Under the pieces are notes generated by a model, which saw nothing but the letters and a program-made list of their open reading frames with translations, made no database searches and was not told where the DNA came from. A stretch of DNA of 31,155 nucleotides from Myxococcota bacterium. Its GTDB lineage: Bacteria > Myxococcota > XYA12-FULL-58-9 > JABJBS01. The stretch is taken from the NCBI GenBank assembly GCA_036339465.1, contig JAYZAY010000050.1:1-31155 (forward strand), in the 5' to 3' direction. A program made the position numbers and the translations under genes. Of this stretch, positions 3,543 through 22,421 are shown piece by piece. Each line of letters opens with the position of its first letter. Positions within the stretch are counted from its first letter, which is position 1.

Positions 3543-4964
3543 TTAACCGGTCAACCGACCCACTTTCTCTAAGCCTGGTCGGGCTCCTAATCCTAAAAGC
3601 ATCGAAAGTAATAAAAGTGCCCCCACACTAACAGCCGTGCGAGCCGCCAAAGCCTTGGTGGGTTCTTCTTTGAATTCAAAACTCGGCAATTGTCGTAAAT
3701 CTTTAGTTCTCATTTCGAGCCCCGACTGCACCCGCTCGGAAAAGAAAGCCCGAAACTCCCTGTGAAAGCTATCGGCTTGTTTTTCAAAGCGCGCATGTCG
3801 GATAGAACCCGAACCCGCTACATCCTCCAAAGATAGCTGGACCAAAATAGCGGGGGAGAGAAAGCGAAGGGCACTCAGTATGGTCTGCCGCTCTTGTAAT
3901 TTTTCGTTAAGCTCTTTGAGCACCGGCTCCGAACGCTTGACCAGTTCATCCTGCACCCGGATGATTTTTCTGGCGCCGTCGCCTGCCTTAGGATCCACGT
4001 CGTGACGACCCTCCAGGTTGTTGAGTTCTTTCTGAATATCCCGAGCCGCCTCTCGAGCCTCATGCAGAAGCTCAATACGAGAGGGTGGGGGATAGAAAGT
4101 ATCCACACCAACATTCACCAAACCAGGCACCACCACCACCACCACCAGCCAGATCCCCACAAGAACCAAGGCATTTTTAGCCGAACTTCCGCCGCGAGAA
4201 TTCACCAAAATAGCCGTGGCAAACCAAAAGGTGGCCCACCCCACCAACACACCGGCGTAAAGAAGGAAATGGAAACTCTCTTCGCGTTGAAAAAAGCTTC
4301 CCCCGGCGATTAGCAGGCCCAGAAAAGCAAAAACCAAAGTTAGGCCCGAAAGGGCCGTCAGACGCGCCAGGGCTTTTCCTAGAACGAATGCTCCTTGGGA
4401 TACGGGTTGGGAGAGAAGCATGGCCAGGGTGCCCCGTTCCCTTTCGCCGCTGAGTAGCTCGTAGGAGAGGGCGATGATCACCAAGGGAAAGAGCACCACA
4501 AAGAGAAAGGCGGGATCAAATGCGCCAGTCTGGAGGCGGGTGGGCCCGGCCATAGGGGTTTCGGTTTCCCGTTCTAAGATGAGGTTTAGAGCACTGGTGA
4601 CCCGCACCGCCTGGGGGCGAAAATCCCGTTGGCCCATGGCCACCGAAGCCAGAGGAGCAGGGGGAAGAACCGCCAGGCGTGCCGCCCCCTCTTGGCCCAT
4701 CCACACGGCATTGCGGGGATCTCTCGCACTCAAGGGCTTTTGCGTGGTTTCGAGTTTTGCCAGTTTCTGTGCCAGTGTTGTTAGGCGCTGGACTTCCTCA
4801 GTTTCGGAGCGCTCCAATCCTTTGGCCATTTGCCGGGCATGATTTCCCCCCGCAAGCGATGCGAGCACGAGAAAACCGGCAAAGAGAGCCAGCACGCCCA
4901 TGGCAGCGCGGTCCTGTTTTAGGATCCGCCACTCTAATCTGAAAACGGTTTTCCAGGTGCTCAT
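3543..4964 (-). CDS. ABC transporter permease subunit with DUF3526-type C-terminus
   Basis: GAFDPAFLFVVLFPLVIIALSYELLSGERERGTL motif and multiple TM helices. ATG 4964 overlaps the stop of the upstream permease (ATGA). Confidence 0.88.
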   Translation of the reverse strand: MSTWKTVFRLEWRILKQDRAAMGVLALFAGFLVLASLAGGNHARQMAKGLERSETEEVQRLTTLAQKLAKLETTQKPLSARDPRNAVWMGQEGAARLAVLPPAPLASVAMGQRDFRPQAVRVTSALNLILERETETPMAGPTRLQTGAFDPAFLFVVLFPLVIIALSYELLSGERERGTLAMLLSQPVSQGAFVLGKALARLTALSGLTLVFAFLGLLIAGGSFFQREESFHFLLYAGVLVGWATFWFATAILVNSRGGSSAKNALVLVGIWLVVVVVVPGLVNVGVDTFYPPPSRIELLHEAREAARDIQKELNNLEGRHDVDPKAGDGARKIIRVQDELVKRSEPVLKELNEKLQERQTILSALRFLSPAILVQLSLEDVAGSGSIRHARFEKQADSFHREFRAFFSERVQSGLEMRTKDLRQLPSFEFKEEPTKALAARTAVSVGALLLLSMLLGLGARPGLEKVGRLTG

Positions 4965-6388
4965 ACCACCCTCACTTTCTGGGCCGACCGCAGGGCCAAG
5001 AGAATCGCCGCTACCAACCACAGTAAAAGTATCCCTAGGCTCAGCGCATGGGTTTGTAGGGCGAAGCCCACTGTGGGGGCCTCGTAGGTGAAGGGGGGGA
5101 TTTTCTTCCAAAGTTCGGGACCGGCCCGGTATTCCCAACCCTCATAGCCTGCGTTGTCTGCGAAGTCCTTATTCAGTTGGGTCACGAGTTTCTTGCGCCA
5201 CGCTTCTGCCTGATCGGTGAAGTGGCGATGGTGGGAAAAATCGGTGCCGGAGAGTCCGGCAGAGAGGGTGCGCATGGCCAGAAAAGGGGAGATGACCCCG
5301 ATGAAAGCCACCACTTTTTCCTGAGCTTCGATATCGTCATCGAGGGCTTGCATGTGGTGGTCGTAGATCATGTCTTCCCATCTTGCTTCGGCTTGGAGTT
5401 CCAGCCCGTTTATCTGCGAGCCCTGCACCAACAAACCTGTATTCGAGAGATTTTCTGCCGCCATAAGATCGGTGAGGATGGCTTCCACGGCCGTGTCCCG
5501 TTCCATTTTGCCGCCGATTCCATTTTCGAGACTCTGGGTGATATCGCGAGCAAGGGCCCCTTGGCTGGGCAGGGGTTGAGCGGCGGAGGCGACCTCGGTG
5601 GCCACTCGGGGCGCCACCAAACAAAAGAGGCCCCAGACTCCAATCATCGCCACGAGAGCACCACGGGAGGAGCTGTTGATGGCAGACACATAAAGGGTGA
5701 GGCCACCGAAAATGGCGAAGTAGATACCGTAGGTGAAGACCAAAAGCATGAGTCGGAAGATGGTAGCACTGTCGCCCCCGCTTAAAGCCCAGAGGACGGC
5801 AATGAGGATGAGGGCAGCGGGGATTAAAAGGACAGCGATAACAACGCCGAGGGCACCCGCCTTGCCCCAAAAGAGGGTGCGACGATCCGCCCCGGTGCTA
5901 AGAAGTTGCCGGAGCGTACCGCTCTCTCGCTCGCGACTCCAAAGTCCGTGTCCCAAAGCGATAATGAGCAAGGGGACCAGCTGAAGGAGCACACTGGCCA
6001 CAGAGAAGGAACCCATACGCCGAAGACTGGTGCTGTCTTGAGCAGAGGAGTGAGCCGCCAGATTGCGTTTGTGGGCTTCGATTTTCACCGAGCGACCCAA
6101 ATAGGCCGAGATCCCAGGATCGATGGCGGTAACGGCGCTGATGGGGGCGAAGAGGTGGGTACCGTAGTGGGCGGCGACGTGTGGGTTTTTATCCCCTTGG
6201 TTTTCCCACTGCTTGGCCGATCGCTTTCGGGCGTGCTCGCGGGCATCTAGGGCTTCGAGGGTTTGTTGGGCACCAAAAGCGAGGGCGGCGAGGGCGAGCA
6301 CCACCACGATACCCCCCAAAAGACGAAGGCGACCGTCTCGGATGATTTCTTTGATTTCCTTATTTGCGACCCAGCGAACCAAGGACAT
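4961..6388 (-). CDS. ABC transporter permease subunit with DUF3526-type C-terminus
   Basis: KNPHVAAHYG, SRERESGTLRQLLS, LSGTDFSHHRHF motifs. ATG 6388 has a GGAG RBS. Confidence 0.88.
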   Translation of the reverse strand: MSLVRWVANKEIKEIIRDGRLRLLGGIVVVLALAALAFGAQQTLEALDAREHARKRSAKQWENQGDKNPHVAAHYGTHLFAPISAVTAIDPGISAYLGRSVKIEAHKRNLAAHSSAQDSTSLRRMGSFSVASVLLQLVPLLIIALGHGLWSRERESGTLRQLLSTGADRRTLFWGKAGALGVVIAVLLIPAALILIAVLWALSGGDSATIFRLMLLVFTYGIYFAIFGGLTLYVSAINSSSRGALVAMIGVWGLFCLVAPRVATEVASAAQPLPSQGALARDITQSLENGIGGKMERDTAVEAILTDLMAAENLSNTGLLVQGSQINGLELQAEARWEDMIYDHHMQALDDDIEAQEKVVAFIGVISPFLAMRTLSAGLSGTDFSHHRHFTDQAEAWRKKLVTQLNKDFADNAGYEGWEYRAGPELWKKIPPFTYEAPTVGFALQTHALSLGILLLWLVAAILLALRSAQKVRVV

Positions 6389-6401
6389 GGCCTCTCCTCT
6401 C

Positions 6402-7109
6402 CTAGTCGTGCATGTGTTCGAGGTAAATACGCTCGAGGTCGTTGTGGGAGAGGTCTTGGGCAACCAGTTCCGCCACCAGCTCTCCGTGTTTCATAATGCC
6501 GATTCGAGAGGCAATTTCCCGAGACCGAAAAAGATCGTGGGTGGCCATGAGAACGGCCACGCCCGAATCGCTGAGGGAGCAGACCAACTGGGAAAATTCG
6601 TTGGAGGCTTTGGGATCCAAACCGGAGGTGGGTTCGTCTAGGAGGAGGAGTTCGGCTTTGCGGGCCATGGCCATGGCGATACCCACCTTTTGGCGCATGC
6701 CCTTGGAGTAGGTGCCCACGGGTCGGTCCGTAGCATCGGTGGGAAGTCCTGCCCGATCGAGGGTGGTGCGGAGCTCTTCGGAGCTGGTATCGGTGATACC
6801 CGCGAGAGTCGTGAAGTATTCGAGGTTTTCCATGCCGCTCAAATTGGGGTAGAGCATGACGTTTTCGGGGATATAGGCCAAGAACTTCTTAGTTTCCAAA
6901 ACATTTTCGGCCACTTCGAGTCCTTTGATTTTGGCGCTACCGGAAGTGGGTTCGATGAAGCCTAAGAAGAGTTGGATAGTGGTGGTTTTACCCGCGCCAT
7001 TGGCCCCGAGTAGGCAAAATACTTCCCCCTGCCTCACGTGGAGATCGAGCCCTTTGAGAGCAGGGTGGTTGCCGTAGTGTTTGACAAGGCCTTGGGCCTG
7101 CAGAACCAT
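6402..7109 (-). CDS. ABC transporter ATP-binding protein
   Basis: Walker A GANGAGKTT, signature YSKGMRQK, Walker B LLLLDEPTSGLDP, H-loop ATHD. Confidence 0.96.
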   Translation of the reverse strand: MVLQAQGLVKHYGNHPALKGLDLHVRQGEVFCLLGANGAGKTTTIQLFLGFIEPTSGSAKIKGLEVAENVLETKKFLAYIPENVMLYPNLSGMENLEYFTTLAGITDTSSEELRTTLDRAGLPTDATDRPVGTYSKGMRQKVGIAMAMARKAELLLLDEPTSGLDPKASNEFSQLVCSLSDSGVAVLMATHDLFRSREIASRIGIMKHGELVAELVAQDLSHNDLERIYLEHMHD

Positions 7110-7386: not shown

Positions 7387-8460
7387 ATGCACACCGTCAA
7401 GTGGAATCCAACCATCCCTCTGATGTTCATGCCCCTTTTGGGAGGTGTTGCCCATGCGGACACGGAGATTTTGCGGTTAACAGGCAAAAACCAATTTAAG
7501 GGTTCCAGGGTTCAACATGTGGATACCACGGGCCGGAGCCGACGCAGTAGGGAATGCTGTACGATTGTGGACACCAACGGTCGAGCCTATTCCTATAATG
7601 TACGACGAGAGGTGGAAGAGGTGGAACGGGATGGGGAAAAGGTTAAAATCTACCATTATTATTTCGAATACTACGCCGGGAAGGAAGGAAAGTTGGGGCT
7701 TATTTCCTAGATCGCTTATTGGAATTCCGAACAATCAGCCCCCACCACCTGGAAAACCGCCAGCATCCAACTCAATGAAGCGGGCGTACCATTTCTTTTG
7801 GCCTATAAAACCCATGGACCAGGGGGAGGGCGAAAAGACTTGGTCCTATTGCGCCGAAATGCGGTCCAAAACACGGTACTCCCTAACCACAATGGTGGTT
7901 TTTCCGAGCTGAAATTGCTCTTAGACAATGATGACCAAGCGATTGCCATAGGGAAGCAGGGAAAAAACCTGGTATCCATTTACAATCATTCGGTCACAAA
8001 ATTGATTCAAAAAACCACCTACGATTGGTCGGTGGCGCGAGACAAGCAAGGATGGATTTATGTTCTAGCTTACACGTATGACCAACGCTCCTTTTTAGTG
8101 ACAGTCTCTCGCGGAGATCTGAAAGACTGGCGTTTAAAGATGGTGGATTCCTCGGAAGCGGGCTGGAACCATTCTATTTCCATGTGGGAAGACCAAGTGG
8201 TCATCGCTTACTACTACCGAAATAGCTTCAATAAGGGATTGCGACTTTCCTATCTCATTTACAAACGATTTTATGCAATGCATGGAACTGGTTTATTCTT
8301 TCGGGTGGGCTATGGTGCTCAAGGATTGGCCCATGGCTTTCGGGCAGGGCCGCCTGGGGATCGCGATGCGAATGAACGAGACGATTCAGATTCGGTTACC
8401 CGCGCCCATCACTATCAAGTTCAGCATGGGCCCTTCTTAAACTTGGGGCTTGTTTACTAG
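7387..8460 (+). pseudogene. Probable decayed gene for a secreted beta-rich protein, interrupted by an in-frame TAG at 7708-7710
   Basis: ORFs 7387..7710 and 7798..8460 are in the same frame, and the intervening sequence is open (IAYWNSEQSAPTTWKTASIQLNEAGVPFLL). The N-terminus resembles a signal peptide ending VAHA. Confidence 0.55.
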
Positions 8461-11164: not shown

Positions 11165-11827
11165 ATGAAAGCGAATCATTGGGTAGTGGTGGGATTTTTG
11201 TTCATGGGCGGTCAGATCGCCTGCGCCCCAACCTATAAGCAAATAGTCATCTCCATGGTCGATTTAGATTGCGCCAGTTGCGGGGACGATTTGGCACATC
11301 AGTTGAACCGCGGCGAAGCCACCAAGGGCGCCCAATTTAATCTCAATTCGGCAGAAATCACGGTAAGCTACAACCCCCAACATACGACACCCGAAAAATT
11401 GGTGAGCACCCTTCAAAGCGAGGACTACAAGCTCACCCTCGGCCCCGGGAAAGGGTCATACACGCCCATGGCCAAATTCGCCAAGAACGCCGACGTCAAA
11501 ACCATCTCCAAAAATGGTGAGGCCGTGTGGTTGGAAAAACATTGGGTGCGAGGAAAAATCACCGTTTTTGATTTCTACGCCGACTGGTGTGGACCCTGTC
11601 GGAAAATCAACGATTTCCTTAAAGTGCAAGCCGAGACCCGTAACGATCTGGCCATCCGCAAAATCAATATTGTCGACTGGGATAGCCCCGCCGCTCAGAA
11701 GCATCTGGCCCACGTGGCAGGACTACCTTTTGTGGTCGTGTATGGCCCCCTAGGGACGAAGCTTGGGCACGTTGAAGGATTGAAGTTTGAGCAGATTGAA
11801 AAACTCATCGCGCCGAGGACAAAATAA
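11165..11827 (+). CDS. Exported heavy-metal-associated (HMA) domain plus thioredoxin domain fusion protein
   Basis: N-terminal hydrophobic segment with lipobox-like IAC. HMA-type LDCASC followed by the beta-alpha pattern ITVSYNP...LVSTL. C-terminal Trx domain DFYADWCGPC...GLPFV. Confidence 0.85.
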   Translation: MKANHWVVVGFLFMGGQIACAPTYKQIVISMVDLDCASCGDDLAHQLNRGEATKGAQFNLNSAEITVSYNPQHTTPEKLVSTLQSEDYKLTLGPGKGSYTPMAKFAKNADVKTISKNGEAVWLEKHWVRGKITVFDFYADWCGPCRKINDFLKVQAETRNDLAIRKINIVDWDSPAAQKHLAHVAGLPFVVVYGPLGTKLGHVEGLKFEQIEKLIAPRTK

Positions 11828-12906
11828 TGAAATTGAAACGTGTGGGAATTGCAGTATGGATCACCTTTTCGATGTTTTTGACCTGGACACCCCAGTTTAG
11901 TTTTGCCGCCACTTGAACCGCTTGAACAAACCCAAGTCTCCCGGGTGGAGGCTCCGACTTACTAAGCAATCTTGAAACCGAGATTTCCTACCTCCTTAGC
12001 GTGAGGCTATCGTCTAGGTATATCCACACTTCCCACAAAGTCGACCCCCGTCAATGGGAGCCGGGTATTGCTCAGGACCAGCAGGCCTACGACCACGTGC
12101 TGGATTTTCTCTTTTTCGATTTGGAGCTAAGCGGCACCTATTTTTTGAATCGATGGTTGGGGCTGAAACTCTACGTGCCTCTCAGGATGGTGGGCGCAGA
12201 AGCACAATTTAACAATTTCGATGGCCTGGAAATCGCGGGCTTCAAGAGCATTCACCATCGCCGAGAAACCATTATGGGAATCGCCGACGTGGGAACCGAC
12301 GCTGTATTTCGTTTTCGCCCCTTTCAATCCAAAACACTGGCCTGGACAATGCGTGTGGAGACAGGGTTGCGATGGCCAACTGGAAAGGTCGAGCCCAACC
12401 CCGATCAATTGGGGAGTGAGGGGAAAGAACATCAGCATATCTTTTTCGGTCGCGGCAGTATTGTGCCAATTTTGGGGATGAGTCATGCGCTACGGCTGCC
12501 CGATTTCACCATGGATCTGTGGGGGCGACTCATTTATCCTTTCTACGCCCATGAGCTGGGCTATAGAGCCAGTCGCACCTATTCTGGCGGCCTCGGACTC
12601 AGTTCCAAATTCGGACTCTCACAATGGCAATTTGGGGTTTTCGGAGGTGTCTCTAGGGAAATGCCCGCCAAGTGGGAAGATACCCCGGCGCGAAACAGTG
12701 GCCGAACGCAAGTAAACTTGAATCTTCGTTTTCAATATTATTCTGGACCTAAGTGGGCCCATGGGCTAACCATGCAAATTCCGATCTATGGAAAAGTCGA
12801 AGGCGGACAGATGGCGGCAGGATGGATGCTTTCCCTAGAATCCAATTGGTATGGTCTTGAAGAAGGAACCATAGAGTCCCATGATACTTCCCATACAACG
12901 AATTAG
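11827..12906 (+). CDS. Putative selenoprotein: signal peptide, UxxU motif (two in-frame UGA) and His-rich outer-membrane beta-barrel-like domain, 359 aa
   Basis: ATG 11827 overlaps the upstream stop (TAATG), is preceded by GAGG and is in frame with ORF 12001..12906. Translation is MKLKRVGIAVWITFSMFLTWTPQFSFAAT-U-TA-U-TNPSLPGGGSDLLSNLE..., with TGA at 11914-16 and 11923-25 and no other stops. A SECIS-like hairpin follows. The downstream region has amphipathic beta-strands plus SIHHRRET, GIADVG, WPTG and EHQHIFFGRG. Confidence 0.75.
11935..11953 (+). promoter_or_regulatory. Candidate bacterial SECIS hairpin
   Basis: AGUCUCC-(CGGGU)-GGAGGCU forms a 7-bp stem with one G-U pair and a G/U-containing apical loop. 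The loop starts 16 nt after the second UGA and 25 nt after the first. Confidence 0.6.
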
Positions 12907-21649: not shown

Positions 21650-21682
21650 ATCGGTTTATCGGCTTTATCGGCTTTATCGGTT
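21650..21682. repeat. Short 9-bp tandem repeat (ATCGGCTTT)-like x~4
   Basis: ATCGGTTT ATCGGCTTT ATCGGCTTT ATCGGTT, immediately beyond the DTW gene stop. Confidence 0.75.
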
Positions 21683-22421
21683 ATACATTATCCAGATTAC
21701 TCAGATTACTCTGATTACCCTGATTACTCTGATTACTCTGATTACTCAGATTACCCAGATTACTCTGATTACCCTGATTACCCTGATTACCCTGATTACC
21801 CTGATTACCCTGATTACCCTGATTACCCTGATTACCTCGGGTCGCCAAGGTCCGTTCCACCATGGTGTTAAAGAGTTTTTCTAGGGCCTGATAAACTTCT
21901 TCTCCCTCGATAATCCGAAGAGCACGCGCAATGGCCTCAAAGGTGCTCAATCCACCGGCTTTGGGTTCATGTCTCAGCTGATAGCGAGTGGGGCCCATAT
22001 CAGGAAGAGTCACCCGCGGTAGCTCTTGAAGCGCCGGTTCCCGGGTGGTGCTCTTGGAGGCTTGTCTCCAACTCCCGTCTGGCACCACCAGAGTAATGGG
22101 GCGGGGGTCTTGGGCCAAGAATGCCGAGCTCAACACGTGAGCATCATCACAGGGATAGAGAAGGAGCGTCCGGCGTTTGGCCGTCACAATGCCAGTGGCA
22201 TCGAAGGGAACATCTTTGCGCCCCCTCAACCGAATTTCGCTGGTGGGAGAAGCCTGGGTGAAAAGCGCAGCACTAGCGGTGGGTTTACTCCACTCACGAT
22301 GGTGCATCACCACCACCACCCGGGTGGTGAGTTCCACAATGGGAATAAGTTCACACAGACAATCCTGAACATGCATGCGGCATTTAGCGCAACGGTGCGC
22401 GCGTTTGGAACGGGTACCCAT
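21681..22421 (-). CDS. tapT: DTW-domain tRNA-uridine aminocarboxypropyltransferase (TapT/YfiP-like) with a repeat-encoded tail
   Basis: N-terminal RCxxC...CLC, HHREWSKPT, LLYP, VVPDGSWRQA (DxTW variant), LSTFEA. C-terminal (GNQ/SNQ/SNL)n. Confidence 0.85.
   Translation of the reverse strand: MGTRSKRAHRCAKCRMHVQDCLCELIPIVELTTRVVVVMHHREWSKPTASAALFTQASPTSEIRLRGRKDVPFDATGIVTAKRRTLLLYPCDDAHVLSSAFLAQDPRPITLVVPDGSWRQASKSTTREPALQELPRVTLPDMGPTRYQLRHEPKAGGLSTFEAIARALRIIEGEEVYQALEKLFNTMVERTLATRGNQGNQGNQGNQGNQGNQGNQGNQSNLGNLSNQSNQSNQGNQSNLSNLDNV
21695..21836. repeat. 9-bp coding tandem repeat (GATTACCCT and variants) x~16
   Basis: Units GATTACCCT/GATTACTCT/GATTACTCA/GATTACCCA. Encodes the GNQ/SNQ/SNL tail of the DTW protein on the minus strand. 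Confidence 0.95.

Follow-up and report, generated by a model that had tools for sequence, protein, structure and literature searches.

The window analysed here, a stretch of 31,155 nucleotides from a Myxococcota bacterium (contig JAYZAY010000050.1, forward strand), carries two adjoining genes on the plus strand. The upstream gene (11165..11827, +) encodes a partner protein of 220 amino acids, and the downstream gene (11827..12906, +) encodes a precursor of 359 amino acids when its frame is translated throughout. Only two stops interrupt this 359-codon frame, both of them TGA, at codons 30 and 33. The genes meet in a TAATG stop/start overlap with a ribosome-binding-like GAGG ahead of it (11814..11829, +), through which their translation may be coupled. 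Read by eye, the precursor starts with a signal peptide of 27 amino acids (11827..11907, +) that would be cleaved past S-F-A, and signal peptides of like kind precede the motif in the homologues of the family alignment. The first TGA (11914..11916, +) falls at mature residue 3 and the second (11923..11925, +) at mature residue 6. With selenocysteine (Sec, U) at both, the precursor reads SFA/AT-U-TA-U-TNP in this region and the mature protein begins A-T-U-T-A-U-T-N-P. The gene contains 12 TGG codons and two TGA codons, while TGT and TGC are both absent, leaving no Cys codon. Pfam and NCBIfam searches with the query barrel protein gave no match, an Rfam search gave two chance matches only, and a promoter and terminator scan of the locus stayed at chance level.

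TGA is an ordinary stop in the source genome, where it terminates 460 of 1728 long stop-to-stop frames, and both cmoA and a permease gene terminate in ATGA overlaps. A preliminary description of this DNA had already named UGA as a normal stop on the basis of those two overlaps. It had also placed the start at ATG 11827, overlapping the upstream stop and in frame, and had taken the two TGAs, in CxxC spacing behind a signal peptide, to be the only internal stops; the gene and frame stand as it gave them, while the SECIS, the upstream thioredoxin/metal-module partner and the size of the family had been omitted. The check for assembly errors that it had proposed is answered by contigs from three studies (runs X1, X2 and X3), which span both TGA codons with no letter differences; X1 may be the source sample, the contigs of a further run, X4, leave both codons uncovered, and X1-X4 are all labelled marine or seawater metagenome. 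Assembly error as the source of the TGAs is thus rejected. Nor is the motif a mere product of chance. Across the genome, a scan found 3534 in-frame UxxU strings, eight of them followed by a long open frame, and a single one of these eight, the barrel gene, has a strong SECIS-like hairpin.

The gene belongs to a large family. A single-protein search returned 347 representatives at E <= 0.001. Among 151 other proteins examined, a CxxC lies within the first 70 residues in 15 and the motif is absent from 136, most of which begin 3' of it. Six of 60 related genomes gave a match, four of them with two TGAs. Of 401 genomes of the phylum searched with a profile, 58 yielded 59 strong matches, with at least 105 weaker ones (<= 99 bits) besides, and a metagenome scan gave 48 loci. 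Genome matches and metagenome loci together make a set of 107, including the window's own locus and four near-duplicates. These divide into 73 UxxU, 22 CxxU, 9 CxxC and no UxxC forms, with three loci cut, although the metagenome search pattern favours the query's own subfamily so that the proportions are not a census. The alignment of codons 30 and 33 with homologues, also proposed in the preliminary description, is uniform: at the 104 loci with a readable N-terminus the first position is TGA in 73 and Cys in 31, the second is TGA in 95 and Cys in 9, and no other residue occurs at either. Trp recoding is rejected, as the TGA positions align to Cys, not Trp, across the family, and the pseudogene reading is rejected as well. 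A later protein search added 116 proteins, of which 105 have CxxC and 11 start 3' of the motif, so Cys forms are also abundant; where named, these are hypothetical proteins. Named records come from Myxococcota, with a few given only as Deltaproteobacteria. On a tree of 111 sequences (12 CxxC proteins added; five loci omitted, four as duplicates or frameshifted and one as short), at least 10 changes fall on the first motif position and at least 6 on the second. The CxxU form occurs in isolates whose records are titled Archangium gephyra, Archangium violaceum, Pyxidicoccus caerfyrddinensis and Myxococcus sp., and its presence in these cultured and harmless myxobacteria (Archangium, Pyxidicoccus, Myxococcus) makes the function open to testing.

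More than 100 genomes of the phylum hold distant paralogues (<= 99 bits) that match mainly the C-terminal two-thirds of the profile. In one genome (G196; loci L100 and L132) a barrel-thioredoxin fusion of the UxxU form occurs alongside a CxxC copy whose partner is a separate gene. In the closest family members, L126 and L127, loop 4 is extended by a long insertion rich in His, Met and Tyr; L127 also has an extra Cys pair in loop 1, where one subfamily instead has a CPxIGPxC pair.

Just downstream of the TGAs lies a bacterial SECIS hairpin (11935..11953, +; -8.5 kcal/mol) with a 7-bp stem and a 5-nt loop that has G at position 2. The loop begins 16 nt past the second TGA and 25 nt past the first. 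According to the available passages of PMC13188914, the bacterial SECIS model calls for a hairpin that lies 16-37 nt downstream, has G within the first two positions of its loop and has an energy of -7.5 kcal/mol or below; by distance, loop G and energy the window hairpin satisfies this model. With duplicates dropped and a threshold of -4 kcal/mol, which was the analysts' own, a hairpin occurs at the equivalent position in 69 of 70 UxxU, 19 of 21 CxxU and none of 9 CxxC genes, that is, in 88 of 91 TGA-bearing genes. Among 20,000 sampled TGAs, 2.4% pass -4 kcal/mol and 0.3% reach -8.5 kcal/mol at such a distance. In 28 genes from the subfamily with a 4-nt loop, 97.4% of the alignment cells are paired, and changes on both sides occur at three pairs; one covarying pair, at synonymous Leu/Gly third positions, is found as C-G, U-A and G-C. 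The covariation score there is 0.434, a value reached in none of 500 shuffles and far above that of slid controls. In a set of mixed register to which the window belongs, covariation is weaker (4 of 500 shuffles score as high). The hairpin is present when the local 30 nt are folded and absent from the minimum-energy structure of a 91-nt fold of the region (z -0.75). No second hairpin was found for the first UGA, which suggests that SelB on the single hairpin could decode both. A SECIS distance that favours the second codon would account for CxxU being common and UxxC unseen. In many Myxococcaceae TGA genes (L133:5024-5077 and related loci) an Arg in the 3' arm of the SECIS is encoded by AGG, while CxxC genes of the Myxococcaceae group use CGN codons at the same Arg; the codon choice is apparently set by the hairpin.

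The machinery for Sec, which the preliminary description had suggested looking for, is encoded in the source genome (92.8% complete), where selA, selB, selD and tRNA-Sec with a UCA anticodon were all found. Of the 58 genomes with strong matches, 51 have the TGA form, and selB or tRNA-Sec is present in 50 of these, the exception being 78% complete. The other seven have CxxC only: in three (94-99% complete) selA, selB and tRNA-Sec are all absent, and in four selA and selB are present. All three genomes of at least 90% completeness that lack selA, selB and tRNA-Sec carry the CxxC form; no statistic is claimed for this co-occurrence because kin genomes are non-independent. The selD of the source genome (G000:C85:34722-35633) has an in-frame TGA of its own at UxxK, with a 6-bp hairpin and GGU loop about 20 nt downstream.

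On this sequence evidence the window gene almost certainly encodes a selenoprotein with Sec at both TGA codons, the incorporation of selenium being what we infer. Those checks put forward in the preliminary description that lend themselves to computation all favour it. The opposite reading, that no selenoprotein is made, is very improbable, whether the frame is put down to a pseudogene, a faulty assembly, recoding to Trp or an internal GTG start at 12001. It would fit the gene callers, which place the start of the window gene and of most relatives 3' of the TGAs, and the long-range fold in which the hairpin is absent. The same letters in contigs of three studies, Cys rather than Trp at the aligned positions, TGA at the same place in 95 loci and a covarying hairpin that tracks TGA all argue against it, and with an internal start the signal peptide required by an outer-membrane barrel would be lost.

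The remainder of the mature protein forms a barrel. The preliminary description had proposed an exported beta-barrel fold with His clusters; an AlphaFold2 model with a mean pLDDT of 90-91 and a structure search both give an outer-membrane beta-barrel, of 12 strands and the COG4313/FapF fold (mature residues 26-317; 11983..12858, +), and the His clusters proved to be family-invariant across aligned members. Six His are near-invariant (12034..12438, +): H43 in 89 of 89 sequences, H63 in 94 of 95, H116 in 95 of 95, H117 in 94 of 94, and H175 and H177 each in 95 of 95. From the predicted strand order, these His would lie at strand ends and in loops facing outward; the conserved residues of the predicted outer face are His, Glu and Asp. 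The best structural match is the COG4313 channel Pput2725 (4RL8; Z 24.5-25.1, rmsd 2.7 A, 252-253 residues aligned), at a sequence identity of 11-14%; FapF matches with Z 23.5 and autotransporter barrels come next. A sequence search of the PDB with the family profile gave no match. PF13557 does not match the query at E <= 1 and matches 13 of 135 relatives (best E 3e-8), so the query is filed as a distant structural relative of COG4313/PF13557 and not as a member. The query barrel had no match to thioredoxin-family profiles either; its fold is a barrel, not a thioredoxin.

Ahead of the barrel, mature residues 1-25 (11908..11982, +) form an N-terminal segment with the UxxU and a conserved NPxLP motif, for which the predicted model has a pLDDT of 52-63 over residues 1-20. 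Model residues 11-316 align with 4RL8 1-268, and residues 1-316 with residues 1010-1300 of pre-cleavage EspP, the model N-terminus there falling on the segment that spans the EspP lumen. In 4RL8, according to the passages available, the lumen is occluded from the side of the periplasm by the N-terminus (PMC4493636). The N-terminal segment is modelled inside the barrel lumen with low confidence, and its alignment with the 4RL8 plug and the EspP segment suggests an orientation of the Sec pair up the lumen. When the model was refolded with full-length relatives, the N-terminal pLDDT rose from 41-48 to only 52-63, so the position of the Sec pair stays uncertain. Likeness to Pput2725, with its N-terminus in the lumen, and the PF13557 matches within the family would suit a redox- or metal-gated channel for organic solutes, in which the Sec pair is a thioredoxin-set switch on the lumen plug. 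Such a channel is improbable: the identity to 4RL8 is low, the conserved residues of the outer face are His, Glu and Asp, and the neighbourhoods examined hold no conserved catabolic genes.

The partner encoded upstream is a probable lipoprotein (Cys20), a call that follows a loose lipobox pattern seen in 55 of 66 partners and made with no control. It has an HMA-like CxxC (C36/C39) and a thioredoxin WCGPC (C142-C145); in Pfam the thioredoxin match (E 1.1e-9) is above the cut-off and the HMA match (E 1e-4) just below it, and neither CxxC pair varies among 24 aligned partners. The thioredoxin accompanies the barrel at 83 of 104 loci, directly upstream in 72 and fused to the barrel C-terminus in 11; nine loci are too short for a call and 12 have neither form. 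The modules on the 72 upstream partners are Cys/His in 39 and HMA-like in 26, and seven are thioredoxin-only or cut. The Cys/His module matches domains of three heavy-metal RND adaptor proteins at 64-69% identity, one of which is named cobalt-zinc-cadmium efflux membrane fusion protein. Cupredoxin_1 matches 5 of 135 aligned members, and the cupredoxin-like domain of P0108, the only member tested, matches CupA (2MRY/4F2E, E 1.2e-7). The family is marked by a thioredoxin, either coupled to the barrel or fused with it, whose metal modules are interchangeable. Three-part fusions of barrel, thioredoxin and cupredoxin-like domain are seen in P0082, P0104, P0108, P0127 and P0152. At L061, the partner gene upstream of position 732 has a TGA in its HMA-like motif (UxxC), making both genes of that locus selenoprotein-like.

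Near 4 of 104 loci there is a multicopper oxidase cluster for copper resistance, and 3 of 104 have a CusA/CzcA pump close by, counts made with no background control. Neighbour clustering found no third gene conserved across distant loci, beyond close relatives. The source genome (G000) encodes a DsbD_TM protein, a possible source of electrons.

These features point, with about an even chance of being right, to a double-Sec outer-membrane channel that passes copper or a different soft metal, with thioredoxin holding its Sec pair in the reduced state; metal binding and the identity of the metal in the window protein are, like the function, what we infer. In such a channel, SelB bound to the lone hairpin would decode both UGAs, and after export the N-terminal segment would fold into the lumen and place the Sec pair beneath the His-rich outer mouth. 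A DsbD/CcdA-type protein would feed the periplasmic thioredoxin, which would hold the Sec pair reduced. Between the Sec pair and the partner's HMA, CzcB-type or CupA-type module, Cu(I) or an ion like it would then be swapped, and the His cluster would hold the ion at the outer mouth. HMA, CzcB-type and CupA-type modules all occur in resistance systems, and export or detoxification is on that account slightly favoured as the direction of transport. The link to metals draws on the near-invariant six His, the frequency of the thioredoxin, the recurrent metal modules and the few neighbourhoods with copper genes. Counted against a metal channel are the pLDDT of about 52 at the modelled Sec pair, the small number of loci near copper genes, the lack of a conserved third gene, the 12 of 104 loci at which neither partner form is seen, the partner's HMA match under the Pfam cut-off, and the other neighbours in the window, cmoAB and ureidoglycolate lyase. 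A UxxU diselenide may also be too stable for reduction by thioredoxin. Moreover, COG4313 relatives of known role are tied, in the passages available, to hydrophobic molecules and not to metals (PMC4493636).

The same parts could serve a trans-outer-membrane thiol/disulfide relay in which the barrel passes no solute and a mobile N-terminal Sec pair moves reducing equivalents from the periplasmic thioredoxin to extracellular disulfides, polysulfides or metal ions held by His. This is unlikely, although it deserves some weight: thioredoxin is the most constant partner, the metal module is apparently missing from some partners (the seven thioredoxin-only or cut forms and the 11 fusions), and Sec is kept more often at the second position, as expected for a catalytic residue. 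The last point is also explained by the SECIS distance, three unrelated metal modules recur with the partner, and six His suit metal binding better than pure thiol exchange. A diselenide with a purely structural role, stabilising or folding the plug with thioredoxin as a dedicated folding or isomerase partner, is improbable. The diselenide reportedly formed in the UxxU motif of SelL offers a precedent, and the periplasm is oxidising. However, a bond between residues 3 and 6 would contribute little to stability, the mixed form CxxU is frequent (22 of 104), and the retention of costly Sec in many lineages suggests a chemical advantage.

Returning to the soft-metal channel, a wider proposal is that a thioredoxin-driven diselenol/diselenide pair threaded into a 12-stranded barrel carries soft-metal ions or electrons, and that barrel and thioredoxin form a so far undescribed envelope system of two parts, found widely in Myxococcota and in marine metagenomes. 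This proposal is possible, though we would sooner doubt than assert it. If true, it would amount to a selenium-based, TonB-independent relay across the outer membrane, made with two UGAs decoded from one SECIS. Should the soft-metal mechanism hold, selenium chemistry would be connected with the movement of metals or electrons at the outer membrane.

In predicted fold the window protein resembles the COG4313/PF13557 channels (Pput2725, 4RL8; SphA and TcpY) and FapF (5O65), and it would work like a plugged channel of the COG4313 type, but it adds the Sec/Cys pair, the His cluster and the thioredoxin partner to a barrel distant from them in sequence and outside PF13557. The word cysteine is absent from the main text, as available, of the 4RL8 paper (PMC4493636). 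Two other families, NF049945 (TonB-dependent receptor, FCYXU type) and NF041027 (GSU2204 family barrel), likewise comprise outer-membrane proteins predicted to bear Sec, and are the entries whose names in the 2026 catalogue point to outer-membrane selenoproteins or receptors; they have one Sec each, whereas the window protein has two and lacks CXXCH, and their HMMs match neither the query nor any of 95 members. TonB receptors are much larger barrels of 22 strands. Across NCBIfam the sole match among the 95 members is one weak FilC (E 0.0014), the precursor has none, and none of the NCBIfam selenoprotein models matched a member. PcoB, OprC and the Scs/DsbD-type thioredoxins offer a functional analogy only, with no sequence link to the window protein: PcoB and OprC are barrels that bear a metal site, and thioredoxins of the periplasm are tied to copper tolerance. 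In structure, PcoB (7PGE) matches less well (Z 11.8, rmsd 4.1 A).

Two Sec in CxxC spacing occur also in SelL/Prx-like (PF00578), NF041115 and FmdB-like (TIGR02605) proteins. These are small soluble thioredoxin- or HMA-type domains, in contrast to the membrane barrel that bears the motif in the window, and the barrel matches none of the three; NF041115 matches the partner weakly (17.4 bits against a cut-off of 95). SelL, the precedent for UxxU cited in the preliminary description, is not the only one, as the available passages of the 2026 catalogue add Prx-like, NF041115 metal-binding and FmdB-like families (PMC13188914). Most families catalogued there have, as far as those passages go, a single Sec, making it unusual that UxxU is the commonest form in the sampled loci. 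None of the 119 prokaryotic families of the catalogue can be recognised as the barrel family by name or model in the same passages, and the passages available from BSepDB (PMC13326102), deep-Sep (PMC12013277) and the GOS survey (PMC2398784) do not mention it. A literature search covering papers outside subscription found no description of the barrel family, and no paper was found on selenocysteine with Myxococcota or myxobacteria. The barrel selenoprotein family, and with it the two-gene system, is thus probably undescribed, with the proviso that the unvalidated novel candidates of the groundwater deep-Sep study could contain the family.

As such, it adds a large family to the selenoproteins, and does so on a fold for which none is listed. 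Current annotation wrongly gives its Sec forms as hypothetical proteins that are truncated at the N-terminus and lack a signal peptide. The UxxU/CxxU/CxxC series, together with the single covarying hairpin, offers a natural test of how one SECIS serves two UGAs that lie at different distances from it.

Elsewhere in the window, the minus strand encodes an ABC ATPase and two large permeases (3543-7109, -). Beyond the ABC genes, a short opposite-strand ORF (7387-7710) has no NCBIfam match. A further minus-strand protein, presumably DTW-like, ends in a low-complexity NQG/NQS repeat encoded by a 9-bp tandem array (21681-21800, -).
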